Made by a program: the position numbers and the translations under genes. DNA of 64,000 nucleotides from Acidimicrobiales bacterium (GTDB taxonomy: Bacteria > Actinomycetota > Acidimicrobiia > Acidimicrobiales > DATDAH01): the NCBI GenBank assembly GCA_044221555.1, contig JBGAOY010000004.1, forward strand, positions 185,100 through 249,099. The letters run 5' to 3'. Every line of letters starts with the position of its first letter. Position 1 is the first letter of the stretch. A model generated the notes under the pieces. It searched no databases, was not told where the DNA came from, and saw only the letters and a program-made list of their open reading frames with translations. Below are positions 1,099-41,938 of the stretch, in pieces.

Positions 1099-1633
1099 CG
1101 CCTCGCCATCGTCGAGCGGTGCCGGCCGGCGGTTCCGGGTCGCGCTCGCGATCACGCTCGGCCTACTGGTGGTGCTGATGGTGACCGGCCTGTTCCTCAC
1201 CTGGGCGTACCGCCCGGAACCGGACGCCTCGACGAGCTTCCGAGTGGCCCACCGCGTGGCCTCGGCGCTCCTCATGCCGGCGTCGTGGGCCCTGGCGTTC
1301 ACCATGGTGCAGGCCCGGTGGGGCGCCGGCCGGCGCTCGCCGGCCGTGCGGTGGGCGGTACCGGCCCTGATCGTGCTGGCGGTCCCGGCGGCGGCGTTCA
1401 CCGGGTTCCTCCTGCCGTGGGAGGAGGTGGTCGTGCCGGCGGCCGTGGTGCCGCCTGCGCTGCGGGGCATGGGCGTGGCCTTCGACGCCGGCGTGTCCAC
1501 GGTGAGCTTCGGTGCCGACCCCATCGCCCGCTCCGTCTACCAGCGCTACGTGCTGGCCCACTTCTTCCTCGGCGCGCTGGTGACCGGGCTGGTCCTGCTC
1601 GTCGCCCGCACCGCCGCTCGCCGATCCCGCTGA
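1085..1633 (+). CDS. Cytochrome b N-terminal-domain-like membrane protein (4 predicted TM helices, only 2 His)
   Basis: GTG start overlaps the smc 3' end by 14 nt. Motifs VTGLFLTWAYRP, FRVAHRVAS and FTGFLLPWEE resemble cytochrome b helices A, B and the GYxLPWGQ signature. Paralog of 27259-27870. Confidence 0.6.
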   Translation: MPAPDASPSSSGAGRRFRVALAITLGLLVVLMVTGLFLTWAYRPEPDASTSFRVAHRVASALLMPASWALAFTMVQARWGAGRRSPAVRWAVPALIVLAVPAAAFTGFLLPWEEVVVPAAVVPPALRGMGVAFDAGVSTVSFGADPIARSVYQRYVLAHFFLGALVTGLVLLVARTAARRSR

Positions 1634-1697
1634 CGAACCGGACGACGGCGCCGCGCCGACGAGGAGGAGCCAGCCGGTGTGCTGAGGGGGACGCCGG

Positions 1698-9014: not shown

Positions 9015-10262
9015 ATGTCCAACCCCTGGCCCCCCGATCCGACGGCACCGCCCCTGGATCCCGGTGCCGCGCCGGCCGCCCCGCCCTACGCCTACCAGCC
9101 GGCTCCGCCCTATGGTCCCCCGACCAACCCCGGCCAGCCCCCCGCGGGCGGGCCGCCGCTGCCTCCTCCGCCTGCGGCTCCGAGCGCCAAGCCGCCCCGT
9201 CGCGGTCCCTGGTTCTTCGTGCTCGGGCTCGTCGCCGTGCTCGCCCTCATCGCCGCTGGCTTCGGCCTCGGCAAGGTGGTCAGCGACAGCAGCGACGACA
9301 ACGCGTCGGGCTCGTCGCCCAGCCCCGTGCCGACGTCCGACATCAGCCAGGACCGCCCCGCCGACCCCGCCCCGATCGAGGGCAACGGCGACGAGCCCAT
9401 CGCCGATGTGGCCGCCGCGGTGGCGCCCACGGTCGTGCAGATCGAGACCCAGGAAGGCCTGGGCTCGGGCTTCGTGTACGACGAGTCGGGCCTCATCCTC
9501 ACTGCCGCCCACGTGGTGGGCACCGCCGACCAGGTCAACGTCCGCCTGGCCGACGGCACGCTGCTCGACGGCCAGGTGCTCGGCGCCGACGACGGAGTCG
9601 ACGTGGCCGTCGTGAAGGTCGACCCCGCCGACGCCGACCTGCAGGTGGCCGCCCTGGCCACAGGGGTGCCGGTGCAGGTGGGCCAGACCGCCGTCGCCGT
9701 GGGCAGCCCCTTCGGCCTCGACCAGACCGTCACCGCCGGCATCGTGAGCGCCGTCGACCGGTCGTTCCCCACCAGCACCGGTGTGGTGAACGTCATCCAG
9801 ACCGACGCCCCCATCAACTCGGGCAACTCGGGCGGTGCGCTGGCCGATCGCCAGGGCCGGATCATCGGCATCAACGACGCCATCCTCACCGACGGCGCCA
9901 GCACCGGCAACGTCGGCGTCGGCTTCGCCATCCCGATCGACACCGCCTTCGCGGCCGCCGAGCAACTGGCCCAGGGCCTGCCGGTGCAGTTCGGCTTCCT
10001 GGGCGTGGAGAGCCGGCCCGCCACCTCCGGTGACGCCGGTGCCCAGATCGTCAGCGTCAGCGCCGGCAGCCCGGCCGAGGACGCCGGCATCCAGGAGGGC
10101 GACCTGATCACCCAGGTCGGTGACGACGACGTCCAGTCCAACACCGATCTGGCCGCCGCCATCCGGGCCCACCAGCCGGGCGACCAGGTCACCATCACCC
10201 TGGTGCGCGGCGGCGACGAGTTGACCGTCACCGCCACCCTCGTCAGCGCCGACGACCAGTAG
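9015..10262 (+). CDS. htrA: HtrA/PepD-like trypsin-family serine protease with one PDZ domain
   Basis: ATG 9015 is preceded by GAGGAA. Pro-rich N-terminus and one TM helix. Catalytic triad contexts TAAHVV, DVAVVKV and GNSGGAL. C-terminal PDZ domain. Confidence 0.9.
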   Translation: MSNPWPPDPTAPPLDPGAAPAAPPYAYQPAPPYGPPTNPGQPPAGGPPLPPPPAAPSAKPPRRGPWFFVLGLVAVLALIAAGFGLGKVVSDSSDDNASGSSPSPVPTSDISQDRPADPAPIEGNGDEPIADVAAAVAPTVVQIETQEGLGSGFVYDESGLILTAAHVVGTADQVNVRLADGTLLDGQVLGADDGVDVAVVKVDPADADLQVAALATGVPVQVGQTAVAVGSPFGLDQTVTAGIVSAVDRSFPTSTGVVNVIQTDAPINSGNSGGALADRQGRIIGINDAILTDGASTGNVGVGFAIPIDTAFAAAEQLAQGLPVQFGFLGVESRPATSGDAGAQIVSVSAGSPAEDAGIQEGDLITQVGDDDVQSNTDLAAAIRAHQPGDQVTITLVRGGDELTVTATLVSADDQ

Positions 10263-10320
10263 TCCAGCGCACCACCGACTCGGCCGGCGTGGCCGGGACG
10301 GACAACCCACCTCCACACCG

Positions 10321-10360
10321 GCCACACCGGGGACGACTCCACCGCCGTCCCCGGTGTGGC
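10321..10360 (+). terminator. Perfect 15-bp stem / 10-nt loop hairpin downstream of htrA (no U tract)
   Basis: GCCACACCGGGGACG-actccaccgc-CGTCCCCGGTGTGGC, 59 nt after the htrA stop. Confidence 0.5.
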
Positions 10361-10489
10361 GCGTCCGGGCGCCGTCGGGGAGGGCCTCGGCGGTGGCCCG
10401 GTCGGCACCACGGCGACGGTGCGCCGACCTCGGGTGTCGCCCGGTTCGTCCGAGTGAGACACCGAGCGCCCTCCTAGAGTCTGGGCCTC

Positions 10490-11557
10490 ATGGTATTCCT
10501 CATCATCGCCCTCGTCACGCTCGTCCTGCTGGGTGGCGTGGCCACCTACGTCGCCACCCGCAGCCGCCGCCAACTCCCCGGCCCCACCCCGTCCGCGGAG
10601 GTGGGCCCCGCCCCCGGGGCGCCCACGGCGACGCGGGGTGCCGAGGCCCCCACCCTCGCCCCGAGTCGCTGGCGGGACCGCCTCGGGAAGGCCCGTGGCG
10701 CGCTGTCGGGGGCGATCGGCTCGCTGCTGTCCCGTGGCGGCATCGACCAGGAGACGTGGGACGACCTCGAGGCCGGCCTGCTCCAGGCCGACGTGGGGGT
10801 GCCCACCACCACGGCGCTGCTCGAGCGGTTGAAGGCCCAGGTCGCCGAGCAGGGCCTGACCGAGCCCGAGCAGCTGGTCGACGCGCTGAAGGACGACATG
10901 AAGGAACAGCTCGGGGGTGCCGACCGGTCGCTCACGTACGAGCCCGGCCGGCCCAACGTCTGGCTGTTCGTGGGCGTGAACGGGGTGGGCAAGACCACCA
11001 CCATCGGCAAGCTGGCCAAGCGCCAGATGGGCGAGGGCCGGTCGGTCATCCTGGCCGCGGGCGACACCTTCCGGGCCGCCGCGGCCGAGCAGCTGCAGCA
11101 CTGGGCCGAGCGGGCCGGCGCCGACAGCGTGCGGGGCGACGAGGGGGGTGACCCCAGCTCGGTGATCTTCGACGCCGTCCAGCGGGCCGGCGCCCGGGGC
11201 ATCGACCTGGTGCTGGCCGACACCGCCGGCCGCCTGCACACCAAGGTCAACCTGATGGAGGAGCTGCGCAAGGTGCGGCGTGTCGCCGACCGCGACCCCG
11301 GCACGGTCACCGAGGTGCTGCTGGTGCTCGACGCCACCACCGGCCAGAACGGACTCACCCAGGCCCACCAGTTCACCGAGGCGGTGGAGGTCACCGGCGT
11401 GGTGCTCACCAAGCTCGACGGCTCCGCCAAGGGTGGCATCGTGCTGGCCATCCAGGCCGACCTGGGCATCCCCGTGAAGCTGGTCGGTCTGGGCGAGACC
11501 GAGGACGACCTCGTCGAGTTCGACCCCGACGACTTCGTCGACGCGTTGTTCGATTAG
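10490..11557 (+). CDS. ftsY: Signal recognition particle receptor FtsY
   Basis: N-terminal TM helix. SRP GTPase motifs GVNGVGKTTT, DTAGR and TKLDG. Confidence 0.95.
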   Translation: MVFLIIALVTLVLLGGVATYVATRSRRQLPGPTPSAEVGPAPGAPTATRGAEAPTLAPSRWRDRLGKARGALSGAIGSLLSRGGIDQETWDDLEAGLLQADVGVPTTTALLERLKAQVAEQGLTEPEQLVDALKDDMKEQLGGADRSLTYEPGRPNVWLFVGVNGVGKTTTIGKLAKRQMGEGRSVILAAGDTFRAAAAEQLQHWAERAGADSVRGDEGGDPSSVIFDAVQRAGARGIDLVLADTAGRLHTKVNLMEELRKVRRVADRDPGTVTEVLLVLDATTGQNGLTQAHQFTEAVEVTGVVLTKLDGSAKGGIVLAIQADLGIPVKLVGLGETEDDLVEFDPDDFVDALFD

Positions 11558-11852
11558 CCCTCCTTCGTCGGGCGCCTTCGGCATTCGGTTCGCGCTCGTC
11601 GTGGCTCCGCTCCGCTCCGCCACGTCACCCCGGTCGGCGCATCTGCGCCAACTGCGACTCGGGCGCCTTCGGCATTCGGTTCGCGCTCGTCGTGGCTCCG
11701 CTCCGCTCCGCCACCTCACCCCGGTCGGCGCATCTGCGCCAACTGCGGCACGGGCGCCTTCGGCATCACATTGGCCCCTCCTTCGTCGGGGCGGCTTCGC
11801 CATCCGGGTCGCGCTCGACGCGGCTCCGCTCCGCTCCGCCACCTCACCCCGG
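11558..11852 (+). repeat. Tandem array (3 copies, ~91-bp period) of an intergenic repeat element
   Basis: GGGCGCCTTCGGCAT starts at 11570, 11661 and 11752. Shared core is GGCTCCGCTCCGCTCCGCCACsTCACCCCGG. Copies 1 and 2 are near-identical and copy 3 is rearranged at its 5' end. Confidence 0.85.
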
Positions 11853-11934
11853 TGAGCCGCGGGACCCCAGCGTCGTCGAGCGCGACCTGCTAGGAAGTGG
11901 CCGAGGCCGAGGGGCGGTCATCGGGGGTGGACTC

Positions 11935-13827
11935 ATGAAACGACGGCTCATCGTCGCGTTCAGCGCGATCGCGCTGCTCGCGGGAGCGTGCAGCAGCAGT
12001 GGAGGCTCGGGGGGTGACGAGGGCGCGTCGTCCGCCGACGCGGGCAGTTGGACGGTCCTCGTGTACCAGATCGCCGACAACAACCTCGAGCCCTTCGCGC
12101 TCCAGGACCTCCAGGAGATGGCGTCGGTGGGGTCGAACGAGAACCTCGACCTCGTGGTGATGTCCGACCGCTCGGAGGGTGAGGCCACAGGCGGCGTGCT
12201 CAACATCGACGAGTGGGACACGGCCAAGACCTTCGAGGTGGGCCAGGACGAGTTGACGGAGGTCTCCGACAGCGGCGAGGCGGACATGGCCGACCCGGCG
12301 ACGCTCGCCGAGTTCGTGGCCACCGGCTTCGAGGACCACCCGGCCGACAACCACGCCGTGGTGCTGTGGGACCACGGCGCCGGCTGGCCCGGCATGGGCC
12401 CGGACGAGTCGTCCGGTGACCTGCTCACCCTGCCCGAGATCCAGCAGGGGCTGACCGACGGGATGGCCACCGCGGGGGTCGACAAGCTCGACCTCGTCGG
12501 CTTCGACGCCTGCCTGATGGCCACCTACGAGGTGGGCCAGGCCATGGCCCCGCTGGCCGACTACATGCTCGCCTCGCAGGAGACCGAGCCCGGGATCGGC
12601 TGGGACTGGAGCGCGTTCGACGAGCTCTCCGATGGCGGGGCCGACGCCGTGGCCCTCGGCCAGAGGGTCCTGGCCGACTACCAGGCGTTCGCCGACAGCC
12701 AGGACCAGGGCGACGACATCACCCTCTCGCTCACCGACCTCGGCCAGCTCGACGCGGTCGAGACCGACCTGGCCACCATGACCAGCGCGGTCGCCGGCGA
12801 CATCGACAGCTATGCCGGCGTGATCGGCCAGGAGCGCACGCAGAACCTCAGCTTCGGGCGCAGCCCCGACCCGACACAGGACACCGGCCTGACCGACCTC
12901 GGCCAGCTGAGCGAGCGCCTGGGTGGCGCCGACGAGACGATCGCAGCGGCCGCCGGGGACGTGAGCGCCTCGCTCGACGCCGCGGTCGTCGACAGCGTGG
13001 CCGGGCCGGCGCGTGAGGGTGCCTCGGGGCTCTCGGTCTACTTCCCCGAGACGTCCGAGCAGCTCTCGCCGGACTACGTCGCGGTCGAAGACGACACGTG
13101 GGCACCACTGCTCGATGCGTACTACACCGCGGGCGACAACATCCCCGAGGACGAGGTGGTCGCCTTCGACGAGTCGACCTCGGGCGAGTACTTCTTCGAC
13201 GAGAACGGCCTCACCATCAGCGGGACCTTCGCCTCGGGGAACGCCGACAACCTCTCCGAGGCGGTCATCTACTACGGCCTCCCCCAGGACGACGGGTCGA
13301 TCGTCTACGTGGGCGAGGAGCCGGGCACCATCTACGACGACGGCACCGCTGACGCCACCTTCGACCTGACCACGCTCACCATCTCGGATGGCCAGGACAC
13401 CGTCGATGCCTACATCGATCTCGGCTACGACGCGGAGAGTGACACCTTCACCATCGATGTGCCGCTGCAGTACGCCCCCCCCGAGGTGACCTCCGAGGAC
13501 GAGTACCAGGACCTCACCCTGAGCCTCGTCCTCGACCCCGACTTCAACATCCTCTCCGAGACCTACTACGAGTTCCAGGAGGGCGGCACCATGGGTGAGT
13601 TCACCGCCGACCCCGACGGGGTGGTCTTCCCCCTCGTGCAGCTTCAGGGCGCCGACGGCACGCTCGAGTACGTGCCGAACGGCGAGGTGGGCCTCTTCGC
13701 CGACCTGCCGAGCCTCGTCTACGAGTTCGCGCCGCTGCCGTCCGGGACGCCTCTGCACGTGGATCTGACGGTCTACGACTTCGGCGGCAACGCCGCCACG
13801 GTCTCTGCCGACGACGTGGTGCCGTAG
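11935..13827 (+). CDS. Secreted lipoprotein, clostripain-like cysteine peptidase (family C11) with ~300-aa acidic C-terminal region
   Basis: ATG 11935. Lipobox LLAGAC. WTVLVYQIADNNLE, catalytic His context VLWDHGAGW and Cys context GFDACLMA. Confidence 0.75.
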   Translation: MKRRLIVAFSAIALLAGACSSSGGSGGDEGASSADAGSWTVLVYQIADNNLEPFALQDLQEMASVGSNENLDLVVMSDRSEGEATGGVLNIDEWDTAKTFEVGQDELTEVSDSGEADMADPATLAEFVATGFEDHPADNHAVVLWDHGAGWPGMGPDESSGDLLTLPEIQQGLTDGMATAGVDKLDLVGFDACLMATYEVGQAMAPLADYMLASQETEPGIGWDWSAFDELSDGGADAVALGQRVLADYQAFADSQDQGDDITLSLTDLGQLDAVETDLATMTSAVAGDIDSYAGVIGQERTQNLSFGRSPDPTQDTGLTDLGQLSERLGGADETIAAAAGDVSASLDAAVVDSVAGPAREGASGLSVYFPETSEQLSPDYVAVEDDTWAPLLDAYYTAGDNIPEDEVVAFDESTSGEYFFDENGLTISGTFASGNADNLSEAVIYYGLPQDDGSIVYVGEEPGTIYDDGTADATFDLTTLTISDGQDTVDAYIDLGYDAESDTFTIDVPLQYAPPEVTSEDEYQDLTLSLVLDPDFNILSETYYEFQEGGTMGEFTADPDGVVFPLVQLQGADGTLEYVPNGEVGLFADLPSLVYEFAPLPSGTPLHVDLTVYDFGGNAATVSADDVVP

Positions 13828-13898
13828 GGGCCGGGGGTGGCGGGCCGCGTGAGGTCGTCCCGCTGACTGCTGCAACGCGCCGGTAGGCTCAACGGTTC

Positions 13899-15305
<1,407 letters not shown>

Positions 15306-39764: not shown

Positions 39765-41177
39765 ATGGCCAAGCCCCCCGTGTTGACCCCGCAGGCCGAC
39801 GACTTCCCCCGCTGGTACCAGGACGTCATCGCCAAGGCCGAGCTGGCCGACAACGGACCGGTGCGGGGCACGATGGTCATCCGCCCCTACGGCTACGCCC
39901 TGTGGGAGCGCATGCAGGCCGAGGTCGACCGCCGCATCAAGGACGCCGGCGCGCAGAACGCGTACTTCCCGCTGTTCATCCCCATGGACTACTTCCAGCG
40001 CGAGGCCGAGCACGTCGAGGGGTTCAGCCCCGAGTTGGCGGTGGTCACCATCGGCGGCGGCAAGGAGCTCGAGGAGCCCATCGCCATCCGCCCCACGAGC
40101 GAGACGGTGATCAACCACTTCTTCGCCAAGTGGATCCAGAGCTACCGCGACCTGCCCCTGCTGGTGAACAACTGGTCGAACGTCGTGCGGTGGGAGATGC
40201 GCCCGCGTCTGTTCCTGCGCACCACCGAGTTCCTCTGGCAGGAGGGCCACACCTGCCACGCCAGCCACGAGGACGCCCGCGACTACGCCCGGCGCATCCT
40301 GCACGACGTGTACGAGGACTTCATGGTGAACGTCCTCGCCGTGCCCGTCCACACCGGCCGGAAGTCGGCCAGCGAGCGCTTCGCGGGCGCCATCAACACG
40401 CTGGCCTGCGAGGCGATGATGCGGGACGGCAAGGCCCTGCAGATGGGCACCAGCCACGAGCTGGGCCAGAACTTCGCGAAGGCCTTCGACGTCACCTACC
40501 TCGACGCCGGCGGCGAGCAGCAGCACGCCTGGCAGACCTCGTGGGGTGTGTCCACCCGCATGGTGGGCGGCCTGATCATGACCCACGGCGACGACAAGGG
40601 CCTCAAGGTGCCGCCCGCCCTCGCGCCCGTGCAGGCGGTGGTGCTGGCGGTGCGCGACGACGTGGAGGTCCTGGAGACGACCGCCCGGTTGGCCGCCGAG
40701 CTGCGGGACCACGGGGTCCGTGTCGAGCTCGACCAGCGCACCGACGTGTCGTTCGGCCGTCGCTCGACCGACTGGGAGATCAAGGGCGTGCCGGTGCGCG
40801 TCGAGGTGGGCCCCCGCGACCTCGCGGAGGGCAACGTCACCCTGGTCGATCGCGACCGGGGCGAGAAGACCCCCATCCACCTCGCTGGTGTGCCCGGCGC
40901 GGTCAAGGTGGCGCTCGACACCACCCAGGCCAACCTGCTCCGCGACGCCACCGAGCGGCGCGACACGGCCACAGCCGACGTGGCGGGGGTGGACGAGGCC
41001 CTCGAGGCCGCCGCCACCGGGTTCGCCCGCATCCCGTGGGCGGCCCTCGGGGAGCAGGGCGAGGCCAGGCTGGGGGACAAGGCGGTGACGGTGCGCTGCC
41101 TCCAGCGCGCCGACGGGTCGGTGCCCGACGCCGACGACGAGCCCGACCTGGTCGCCATCGTCGGCCGCTCCTACTGA
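39765..41177 (+). CDS. proS: Prolyl-tRNA synthetase, archaeal/eukaryote-like architecture (no INS editing domain, C-terminal Tyr)
   Basis: 470 aa. FPRWYQDVI..AEL, class II motifs, ends ...GRSY. Confidence 0.93.
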   Translation: MAKPPVLTPQADDFPRWYQDVIAKAELADNGPVRGTMVIRPYGYALWERMQAEVDRRIKDAGAQNAYFPLFIPMDYFQREAEHVEGFSPELAVVTIGGGKELEEPIAIRPTSETVINHFFAKWIQSYRDLPLLVNNWSNVVRWEMRPRLFLRTTEFLWQEGHTCHASHEDARDYARRILHDVYEDFMVNVLAVPVHTGRKSASERFAGAINTLACEAMMRDGKALQMGTSHELGQNFAKAFDVTYLDAGGEQQHAWQTSWGVSTRMVGGLIMTHGDDKGLKVPPALAPVQAVVLAVRDDVEVLETTARLAAELRDHGVRVELDQRTDVSFGRRSTDWEIKGVPVRVEVGPRDLAEGNVTLVDRDRGEKTPIHLAGVPGAVKVALDTTQANLLRDATERRDTATADVAGVDEALEAAATGFARIPWAALGEQGEARLGDKAVTVRCLQRADGSVPDADDEPDLVAIVGRSY

Positions 41178-41209
41178 CCCGCCCAGGGCCGCCAGTGGCC
41201 GCCGTCATC

Positions 41210-41283
41210 TGAGGTGGCGGAGCGGAGCGGAGCCGCGGTGAGGGCGAACCGGATGCCGAAGGCGCTCCGAGGGACGAGGAGCC
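41210..41283 (-). repeat. Solo inverted copy of the ftsY-downstream repeat element
   Basis: The reverse complement reads GGCTCCTCGTCCCTCGGAGCGCCTTCGGCATCCGGTTCGCCCTCACCGCGGCTCCGCTCCGCTCCGCCACCTCA. This matches the core at 11558-11852. Begins 33 nt after the proS stop. Confidence 0.75.
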
Positions 41284-41336
41284 AATGTGGTGCCCCTCCG
41301 CTATACTTTCGCTGTCTTTAGTTCGAGTTTGTCCGG

Positions 41337-41370
41337 AAAGGCGTGGGCTCGGCCCACGCCTTTGGTTTCT
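41337..41370 (+). terminator. Canonical intrinsic terminator (11-12 bp GC stem, 3-nt loop, T-rich tail) just upstream of the rimP SD
   Basis: AAAGGCGTGGGC-tcg-GCCCACGCCTTT followed by GGTTTCT. Confidence 0.6.
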
Positions 41371-41392
41371 CTCCTGGGAGGTGTGTGCGCAA

Positions 41393-41938
41393 GTGAGCTC
41401 CGTCGAACGCCTCCGCGCGCTCATCGTCCCCTTGGTCGACGACGCCGGCCTCGAGCTCTACGACATCGACCAGTCGGGCTCCACCCTGCAGGTGCTGGTC
41501 ACCCGGCCCGGCGGCATCGACGTCGACGCCCTCACCCGGCTGAGCCGGGCGGTCTCACGCACCCTCGACGAGCACGACCCGATCCCCGGGAAGTACCTGC
41601 TCGAGGTCTCCAGCCCCGGGCTCGAGCGTCCGCTACGGCGGCCCGAGCACTACCAGGGGGCCGTCGGCACCGAGGTGACGGTGAAGACCGTGGCCGGCAC
41701 CGAGGGCGACCGGCGGGTGCGGGGTGTGCTGGTCGACGCTGACCACGAGGCGGCCACCGTCGCCCTCGCCGACGGCACCCAGCGCCGGATCGACTATCGC
41801 GACATCGAACGGGCCCGAACCGTCTTCGAGTGGCAGGCCACTCCGAAAGACGCCGCCCGGGCCCACCCCCAGAACCGCCCGACGACCAACGCCAGCCGCG
41901 CCGCCACCGCAGCGCCGACCCAGAGGAGCGGGACATGA
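41393..41938 (+). CDS. rimP: Ribosome maturation factor RimP
   Basis: GTG 41393 lies 11 nt after GGGAGG. YLLEVSSPGLERPL. Confidence 0.85.
   Translation: MSSVERLRALIVPLVDDAGLELYDIDQSGSTLQVLVTRPGGIDVDALTRLSRAVSRTLDEHDPIPGKYLLEVSSPGLERPLRRPEHYQGAVGTEVTVKTVAGTEGDRRVRGVLVDADHEAATVALADGTQRRIDYRDIERARTVFEWQATPKDAARAHPQNRPTTNASRAATAAPTQRSGT

Follow-up and report, generated by a model that had tools for sequence, protein, structure and literature searches.

What are the repeats that fill the space directly behind ftsY in a 64,000-nucleotide stretch of an Acidimicrobiales genome (contig JBGAOY010000004.1, positions 185,100 to 249,099, here called the window), and do they belong to any of the classes of small dispersed repeats already known from bacteria? 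A first-pass annotation, made from the letters of the window alone, described them as three tandem copies, each of about 91 bp, of an element resembling repetitive extragenic palindromes (REPs) or miniature inverted-repeat transposable elements (MITEs). We find that the array contains members of a dispersed, non-coding, structured intergenic repeat family that is confined, as far as found, to one clade, the Microthrixaceae and related Acidimicrobiales. The Microthrixaceae include filamentous bacteria of activated sludge. We found no earlier description of the family, and its general kind is already known; it is probably a lineage-specific repeat akin to REP, BOX and mycobacterial interspersed repetitive unit (MIRU) elements, evolving at the level of DNA by local amplification and recombination.

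A composite array behind ftsY

The sequence GGGCGCCTTCGGCAT recurs at positions 11570, 11661 and 11752 as the first-pass annotation reported, and Tandem Repeats Finder returns the same period of 91 (11568-11766, 2.2 copies, 97% matches, score 377). The period stands, but the copies are not three equivalent tandem units. A repeat search finds 11568-11658 and 11659-11749 to be 98% identical (units 1 and 2), with a third copy, unit 3, that is only 75% identical and lies 128 nt further along. Unit 3 is closer to a copy behind proS in the same window, and to copies in other genomes (92% to L022, 89% to L010), than it is to unit 1, which has orthologues 3′ of ftsY in four related loci (L062, L063, L064 and L068). 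The array is thus a composite, in which unit 1 has recently been duplicated, giving unit 2 and a 15-nt stub, and is followed by a separate, older, full-length copy. What had been taken for a leader, CCCTCCTTCGTCGGG, repeated in the third copy is not merely a leader but the first hairpin of the element, which unit 2 lacks. The small palindrome GGCGCATCTGCGCC is present in both 91-nt periods, as had been described; in unit 1 it lies within an extension of the tail that is common to L023, is shared in part by L068, and falls outside the family-wide core. An 82-nt gap separates the array from the next gene.

All four copies considered here (the three units and the proS copy) contain an exact 21-mer, GGCTCCGCTCCGCTCCGCCAC, whereas dinucleotide shuffles of the window give an expectation of 0.02 and none of 100 shuffles reaches four. 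The peptides obtained by translating the units were regarded as artefacts at first pass, and rightly so: FtsY ends at its conserved C-terminus, DALF(D/A)*, in every relative, and 91 is not a multiple of three.

Three small hairpins with free stems and fixed loops

Read in the orientation of the first-pass annotation, a full unit is about 85 nt long and comprises, in order, a head, (T-N-A)CAYTG, hairpins 1 and 2 (H1 and H2), the motif CATCCGG, a variable segment of about 12 nt, hairpin 3 (H3) and a tail, sTCACC. H1 has a 5-bp stem of free sequence and a conserved 9-nt loop (TCCTTCGTC, TCCTCCGTC or TCGTCCCTC), H2 has a 3-bp stem with a TTC loop, and in H3 the arms GCGGC and GCC(A/G)C enclose a loop of the form (TCCGC)n TCC (TCCGCTCCGCTCC).

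Covariation supports these hairpins, strongly so for H1 and H2. At least ten kinds of H1 stem are present (GCTCC/GGAGC, GCCCC/GGGGC, GTGGC/GCCAC, GTGCC/GGCAC, GCTGC/GCAGC, GGCCC/GGGCC, GGTCC/GGACC, GGCGC/GCGCC, GTCGC/GCGAC and GCGGC/GCCGC), all of them Watson-Crick, and the loop is conserved in every kind. Across 39 copies, 88.9% of cells are paired compared with 73.4% in shuffles, and the covariation score of 0.362 (0.086 shuffled) is reached by none of 500 shuffles; sliding the partner by 1–3 columns lowers it to 0.10 or less. In a model alignment of 57 distinct copies, pairing reaches 95.8% in H1 (18, 24, 8 and 3 double changes) and 98.8% in H2 (8 and 19); only 5 of 312 cells in the two hairpins are wobble pairs. 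H3 varies little in copies found through the 21-mer, and its alternatives in independently found copies are perfect (GCGG/CCGC and GCTGC/GCAGC), the sister genome described below having GTGCC/GGCGC. An assignment of the strand from wobble pairs was considered and dropped: a C.A position in H3 resembled a reverse-strand G.U pair, but this is an artefact of the 21-mer, which fixes the A, and copies found without it mostly have C-G there.

The first-pass annotation had suggested covariation and folding as checks, and only the former gives a signal. RNA folding of single units and of whole arrays, on both strands, is no better than that of shuffled sequences (z from -0.42 to +0.34), and the hairpins therefore rest on covariation and not on stability. 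Strictly Watson-Crick stems are the expectation for DNA palindromes or for an element that pairs on both strands.

Arrays at other loci have periods of 69, 72, 72, 73 and 83 nt, with no bias towards multiples of three, and the repeated segment differs from locus to locus: in the window it spans H2 to the tail extension, in L013 the head to part of the core, and in L001 and L012 the H1 loop to the tail.

Distribution of the family

Discovery was anchored on the exact 21-mer, and the source genome of the window lies outside the collections scanned. Among 185,579 species-representative genomes the 21-mer occurs at 24 loci, of which 18 are the same element, in seven metagenome-assembled genomes (MAGs) of Microthrixaceae or other Acidimicrobiales; the remaining six, in unrelated phyla, match the low-complexity core and nothing more. 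The corresponding scan of metagenomes returned 37 contigs with family members in 28 of them, including a variant with a longer first loop, GGTCGGCAAGCCTCCC. A hidden Markov model and a covariance model both recovered copies that do not contain the exact 21-mer. The covariance model, R1, was built from 39 copies, and at a match threshold of E <= 1e-5 it has 58 matches in 372,875 bases, at unrelated intergenic sites. The view of the repeats as a dispersed non-coding family is borne out by dozens of unrelated intergenic sites in Microthrixaceae and Acidimicrobiales MAGs and in metagenome contigs.

Searches of general collections gave nothing of the kind. The whole window has no Rfam match at the gathering threshold, the best sub-threshold match under a permissive threshold having E = 0.59; no family member was found in plasmid, phage and viral collections, where the sole viral match is the same non-family contig as L027; and a literature search found no paper containing the core sequence and no report of REP-type repeats for Microthrix.

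The exact 21-mer core is also present in 15 contigs from unrelated or unassigned sources (L004, L017, L018, L020, L021, L024, L027-L029, L032, L034, L036, L037, L049 and L056), among them Methylobacterium, Soonwooa, Flavobacterium, Curvibacter, Streptomyces, Paenibacillus and contigs with 35–46% G+C. Three of the 15 continue with CTC(A) as the family does; a long hairpin in L037 has the 21-mer as its loop, and the 21-mer of L017 lies 3′ of CCCTCCTTCG. We assume that these contigs reflect convergence of a pentamer microsatellite.

Copies in the window

The coordinates of all copies in the window are listed in Table 1. The inverted copy of the core that had been noticed behind proS proved to be a full-length element, with the 21-mer exact and an 85-nt inverted match of 86% between 11762-11846 (unit 3) and 41210-41294; it sits between the proS stop codon (41175-41177) and the promoter and leader of rimP. 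There is probably also a fifth, eroded copy, with a weak match to the model, which fills a 64-nt convergent intergenic region and in which GGCTCCTCCTCGTCGG and TCCGGTTCGTC are still readable although the core has gone.

Just 3′ of the stop codon of the peptidase gene that follows the array, the sequence GGGGGTGGCGGGCCGCGTGAGG (13830-13852) resembles H3 read in reverse and without its loop. It scores below detection by the covariance model; it could be an eroded reverse copy, in which event the peptidase gene would be bracketed by inverted copies, as is a dehydrogenase-like gene in L054 (see below).

Table 1. Repeat units and associated features in the window. Coordinates are those of the window; those of the proS copy are given on the + strand.
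Feature	Coordinates	Strand	Details
ftsY stop codon	11555-11557	+	TAG; the G at 11557 is the first base of unit 1 H1
Unit 1	11557-11629	+	Covariance-model match 11547-11630, 84.4 bits, E 2e-16
Unit 1 H1	11557-11573	+	GCCC / loop TCCTTCGTC / GGGC
Unit 1 H2	11574-11582	+	GCC TTC GGC; linker 11583-11600
Unit 1 H3	11601-11623	+	GTGGC / loop TCCGCTCCGCTCC / GCCAC
Unit 1 tail	11624-11629	+	GTCACC
Unit 1 tail extension	11630-11658	+	Palindrome GGCGCATCTGCGCC (11636-11649) and CCAACTGCGAC
Unit 2	11659-11751	+	Without H1; covariance-model match 11635-11721, 65.7 bits
Unit 2 H2	11665-11673	+
Unit 2 H3	11692-11714	+
Unit 2 palindrome	11727-11740	+	GGCGCATCTGCGCC
Stub of third 91-nt period	11752-11766	+	15 nt, GGGCGCCTTCGGCAT, only H2; adjoins unit 3
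Unit 3	11764-11852	+	Canonical, full-length; covariance-model match 11764-11849, 95.9 bits, E 7e-19
Unit 3 head	11765-11773	+	(AT)CACATTG
Unit 3 H1	11774-11792	+	GCCCC / TCCTTCGTC / GGGGC
Unit 3 H2	11793-11801	+	GGC TTC GCC
Unit 3 H3	11820-11842	+
Unit 3 tail	11843-11852	+	CTCACCCCGG
Copy after proS	41207-41292	-	Inverted, full-length; covariance-model match 94.7 bits, E 1e-18
proS copy H3	41214-41236	-
proS copy H2	41255-41263	-
proS copy H1	41264-41282	-	GCTCC / GAGGGACGA / GGAGC
proS copy head	41283-41289	-	CAATGTG; ATG 41285-41287
Eroded fifth copy (probable)	1619-1680	-	Covariance-model match 22.7 bits, E = 0.008 (weak)
Peptidase_C11 gene	11935-13827	+	Clostripain family, lipoprotein-like; PF03415, E 6e-46; context, not part of the element

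Orientation and position relative to genes

The copies take up intergenic regions that are short. Arrays between co-directional genes are forward in 12 cases and reverse in 10, so that there is no orientation preference relative to transcription; a further six lie between convergent genes and two between divergent ones. The element consequently cannot be described as sitting just 3′ of genes, as the first-pass annotation had it, as about half of the copies have the opposite orientation and abut the start of the next gene. There is nonetheless a clear polarity, and it resides in the head. In 15 of the 18 loci where an open reading frame (ORF) enters the head, its stop codon ends at -1, 0 or 5 nt from H1, and the junction reads TGA or TAA followed by CAYTG and H1, or TAG with its G shared by the stem, as in the window; ORFs entering the tail end at scattered distances of 1 to 41 nt. 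On the reverse strand, the H1 loop and its 3′ arm give GAAGGAGG, and about 5 nt beyond them the head has an ATG or GTG. Six loci (L005, L023, L051, L061, L050 and L054) have no other, or no better, candidate than this codon for the downstream start, and L042, the orthologue of L023, has the same head start on reading of the sequence. In L054, a gene resembling those for short-chain dehydrogenases starts within the head of a reverse copy and stops 5 nt before H1 of a forward copy. Copies without an adjacent gene start often have ATG-TGA at the head position. The polarity of the head may stem from the choice of target, from selection acting once the element is in place, or from loss of spacer DNA.

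Remodelling at orthologous sites

The window is collinear with contig CAZWMT010000030.1 of a Microthrixaceae MAG, here called the sister genome (FtsY 96%, ProS 99% and DNA about 95% identical), and comparison with this and other relatives shows that the number of units between ftsY and ffh does vary, as was anticipated at first pass. There are three units in the window, a single unit truncated within the core in the sister genome (L062), one full unit (L063) or one eroded unit without a core (L064/L065) in relatives with 90% FtsY identity, and a forward H1 stub together with a full reverse copy in a relative with 84% (L068). In relatives with 77–78% FtsY identity the covariance model finds no copy in 21-kb loci, and the slot holds a gene for a BON-domain protein and one for an unrelated protein of about 630 aa. 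We considered whether the latter gene, upstream of ffh, might correspond to the peptidase gene of the window, and rejected this as the two have no BLASTP similarity. In the 84–90% relatives the slot has no gene.

The gene behind the array was recognised at first pass as clostripain-like and non-syntenic, and both points hold: it encodes a Peptidase_C11 protein, and in the closest relatives it is absent, as in those with 90% FtsY identity, or reduced to a remnant. Behind the truncated unit the sister genome lacks 2,084 bp of the window (11611-13694); the junction (L062 7431-7436) lies at a CTyCGCC microhomology between the repeat core and the peptidase gene, and the last 133 nt of that gene are retained. 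The peptidase gene has been deleted in the sister genome, and was not inserted into the window lineage after the two split. The array, suggested at first pass as a possible insertion boundary, holds in its core one junction of this deletion.

In the window (13880-13901) and in L062-L065 and L068, the ATG of ffh is preceded at 8–11 nt by CCGGTAGG(C/A)TCA. A box resembling a -10 element so close to the start codon suggests that ffh is transcribed apart from ftsY, and by its sequence the mRNA is possibly leaderless.

The sister genome (L071) and a 90% relative (L073) likewise have the reverse copy between proS and rimP; the covariance model finds none in L072, an 88% relative, where a possible short H1-like remnant is seen by eye. 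In spite of 99% identity in ProS, the L071 copy has a swapped type of H1 loop, an extra H1 stub and an unrelated spacer, and its H3 has a compensatory change from G-C to C-G. The 40-nt H1-H2 segment played no part in ascertainment; in seven sets of orthologous loci its identity is 75–95%, about the same as that of the flanking coding DNA (73–96%).

Comparison with known repeat classes

The element is like REPs and REPINs in being short, extragenic, dispersed, present in either orientation and lineage-restricted, in its strictly complementary hairpin stems, and in its many copies at unrelated intergenic sites; it also shares with them long persistence at the same sites, and clusters and tandem forms are found in both (PMC3116915). 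It is unlike them in structure, in that the roughly 85-nt unit has three tiny hairpins (5, 3 and 5 bp within about 75 nt) in place of one palindrome of 20–40 nt, has conserved loops and forms direct arrays, and in that its head lies flush with stop or start codons. The replicative unit of REPINs is an inverted doublet forming a long hairpin (PMC3116915), whereas the arrays here are direct and only L068 has an inverted pair; by this definition the element is accordingly not a REP/REPIN. A tblastn search of 0.58 Mb of loci for REP-associated tyrosine transposases (RAYTs) and other Y1 transposases, with E. coli RAYT and IS608 TnpA as queries, gave a best E of 0.59; covering individual loci of the carriers, it is a weak test.

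Nor does the element qualify as a MITE. The Correia and NEMIS MITEs have a similar size range, are intergenic, and can supply expression signals to their neighbours, as this element may. However, our element has neither terminal inverted repeats nor target-site duplications, with the exception of the orthologous locus represented by L011 and L041, where flanking repeats of 34 nt and 25 nt, respectively, are present. At this locus (L011 7600-7800, and L041/L060) the element is bracketed by a direct repeat, of 34 nt in one species and 25 nt in the other, that is identical within a species and different between them, and that ends in TACGCT, resembling a -10 box; a promoter-like segment appears to have been duplicated along with the element.

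MIRUs and this element are alike in that both are intergenic, dispersed units of 40–100 bp that form direct tandem arrays with variable unit number, both have actinobacterial hosts, and in both the unit ends meet the stop and start codons of neighbouring genes (PMC4473831, PMC12548453). MIRUs are, however, defined as being without dyad symmetry (PMC4473831), whereas this element has two covarying hairpins; they are co-oriented with their neighbours, whereas this element has both orientations; and an ORF that could couple the flanking genes is, among the loci compared, present in L013 only, and absent from L014, L054, L031 and the window.

The BOX, RUP and SPRITE repeats of Streptococcus pneumoniae are structured, co-transcribed with their neighbours, have low current transposition and no transposase of their own, and are seen as largely parasitic (PMC3049150). 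Our family is similarly a clade-restricted small interspersed repeat with secondary structure, and the internal modules of BOX vary in number (PMC3049150); it differs in having no sequence relation to these, apparently no fixed boxA-boxB(n)-boxC order, the repeated module varying by locus, and an unremarkable folding energy. In our analysis it most resembles the pneumococcal BOX-type repeats in behaviour, being clade-restricted, structured, slow to turn over and without its own transposase, and in its long-term vertical persistence it resembles REPINs (PMC3116915).

A promoter and terminator consensus scan of 11300-12100 on both strands found no terminator-like site, and the stems are only 3–5 bp. 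Integron attC sites were also considered and dropped, as the copies lie at housekeeping gene junctions and not in cassette arrays, and no R''/R' sites are seen by eye, which was not a formal test.

Interpretation

Several features point to an element that acts and evolves as DNA, namely orientations that are equally frequent, stems with practically no wobble pairs, a plain folding energy and fast remodelling between near-identical genomes, together with array breakpoints that are specific to each locus and the microhomology deletion within the core. On such a scheme the hairpins would matter as DNA, either as single-stranded DNA hairpins or in recombination or gene conversion among copies, and the element would not act as a strand-specific RNA. 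Direct tandem arrays would arise by local slippage or unequal recombination, with breakpoints that vary by locus, and the element would be reshuffled among close relatives and promote microhomology deletions. The head would fit the ends of genes, supplying a stop codon in one direction and a ribosome binding site and start codon in the other, and it is presumably because of this compatibility that operons tolerate the element. In the window, unit 1 would be the ancestral ftsY copy, unit 2 its recent duplicate, and unit 3 a second, older copy.

A number of observations weigh against this interpretation or limit the data on which it draws. There is no sign of terminal inverted repeats (the head against the reverse-complemented tail has a mean of 6.38, compared with 5.82 +/- 1.17 when shuffled) or of target-site duplications (the longest shared flanking word is 5–9 nt in 22 of 24 loci, against a null of 5.8 +/- 1.1), and because neither these nor a mobilising enzyme were found, mobility is something that we infer. 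There are no identical copies at different loci among those found, and hence no sign of a recent burst. Orthologous copies persist across species with stem differences that are compensatory in situ, which could fit selection for a host function as well as gene conversion. Because sampling was anchored on the 21-mer, the core looks more invariant than it is, and the C.A position in H3 is likewise an effect of ascertainment. The orientation counts depend on coding directions assigned from third-position G+C with our own scripts, and some of the loci counted are orthologues of one another. The density of about one locus per 20–60 kb is an extrapolation only, based on the two to three loci of the 64-kb window and on six loci, found free of ascertainment, in roughly 0.35 Mb of flanking sequence; it suggests tens to low hundreds of copies per genome.

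The persistence and compensatory changes just mentioned are what would be expected of a host-functional cis-acting RNA, serving, when transcribed as part of an operon or a 3′ UTR, as a 3′-end stabiliser, a processing site or a terminator without a U-tract, and in the reverse orientation as a portable translation-initiation cassette with a Shine-Dalgarno (SD) sequence in the H1 loop and an AUG 5 nt on, sometimes as AUG-UGA. The loops are conserved more than the stems, the SD and ATG/GTG of the head provide the probable downstream start in about 7 of 15 reverse loci, and ftsY and ffh appear to be separate transcription units, ffh having its own -10-like box, so that a transcript-end element would fit between them. 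With both orientations equally used, however, the conserved loops would be rich in pyrimidines in one half of the transcripts but in purines in the rest; RNA helices under selection seldom have so few G.U pairs; and neither the folding energies, the terminator scan nor Rfam gives any support. Some copies moreover lie within operons (nuoD-nuoE), where termination is not expected. We consider an RNA function unlikely, while taking it seriously. It seems rather unlikely, too, that the element is a maintained, bifunctional 'gene-boundary cassette', whose forward head would end the incoming ORF with a stop codon 5 nt before H1 or overlapping it, whose reverse hairpin would display GAAGGAGG as an SD with an AUG 5 nt away, acting as the start of the next gene or as an AUG-UGA mini-ORF, and whose hairpins would be the site of a dedicated factor, either a non-RAYT enzyme of mobilisation or recombination or a nucleic-acid-binding protein specific to the Microthrixaceae.

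A true REP/REPIN system, in which a single-copy RAYT from another part of the genome would recognise the hairpins in single-stranded DNA, would account for the strictly Watson-Crick stems, the conserved flanking and loop bases, the scarcity of copies in divergent (promoter) intergenic regions, and the extragenic, dispersed distribution with vertical persistence and slow turnover that is seen for REPINs and RAYTs (PMC3116915; bioRxiv 10.1101/2022.05.22.493013). We nonetheless judge it improbable given the three 3–5-bp hairpins spread over about 75 nt, the direct arrays with an inverted pair in L068 only, and the want of a Y1-transposase homologue in the 0.58 Mb searched, weak as that test is. 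Translational coupling of MIRU type, in which small ORFs overlapping the flanking stop and start codons keep the neighbours coupled, is largely refuted and has very little to recommend it outside L013, where four 72-nt units between nuoD and nuoE leave a frame open from TTG (nuoD TTGA) to TGA (nuoE TGATG), and outside the general likeness of intergenic tandem arrays with variable unit number. No such coupling ORF is present in the forward co-directional loci L014, L054 and L031 or in the window, with its 91-nt period and 82-nt gap; half of the copies are antisense to their neighbours; dyad symmetries are present, unlike in MIRUs (PMC4473831); and a G+C content of about 72% leads to chance open frames. 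Finally, there is practically no prospect that no family exists and that the array is instead a local tandem duplication, matched elsewhere by chance, or is translated within FtsY or the peptidase. Both strands do have long ORFs across the region, and the core, as a low-complexity pentamer repeat, is also met by chance in unrelated phyla; but 58 high-scoring, full-length copies share an architecture at unrelated loci, the FtsY stop codon has the same, conserved position in all relatives, the peptidase has a signal peptide of its own, its Peptidase_C11 domain beginning at residue 43, and unit number shifts between relatives regardless of reading frame.

Small dispersed repeats have been characterised in few cultured lineages (REP/REPIN, BOX/RUP, MIRU and Correia), and this family comes from uncultured Microthrixaceae. 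It combines features in an unusual way: the three mini-hairpins have stems of free sequence and loops that stay fixed, the arrays are direct, and one end is tied to ORF boundaries. Since it fails defining tests of REPs, MITEs and MIRUs, it may point to a different route of spread or tolerance in compact genomes of high G+C. As a marker of the variable-number tandem repeat type, the element could help to tell strains apart in metagenomes. It also gives rise to assembly breaks and spurious ORFs, and is a hotspot of local rearrangement, the 2.1-kb deletion in the sister genome having taken the peptidase gene. Should the hairpins prove to be the binding site of a dedicated protein, or to govern translation where genes meet, the family would represent a new regulatory or mobile system.

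Additional observations

Two very long spurious ORFs are present around the array, one antisense to ftsY (9110-11842, - strand) and one running through the repeats (11692-13827, + strand). Such ORFs are expected at about 72% G+C, and automatic annotation could call false genes or N-terminal extensions over the repeats.

The leader of the rimP-nusA-infB operon beyond the proS copy (41296-41392) is nearly identical in all four genomes compared (the window, L071, L072 and L073) despite the remodelled DNA just upstream. It contains a TATACT box (41302-41307), an AT-rich stretch, and a 9-bp hairpin, GGCGTGGGC-TCG-GCCCACGCC (41340-41360), which is followed by TTTGGTTTCTCTCC, GGGAGG and the start codon at 41393. 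The leader has no Rfam match, and judging from its sequence the hairpin looks like a conserved leader terminator or attenuator.

In the sister genome, a gene pair annotated as a HipA-like kinase and a helix-turn-helix protein lies between gcpE and marC (L071 7619-9138; the counterpart region of the window is upstream of 38998), and may be another strain-variable insertion.

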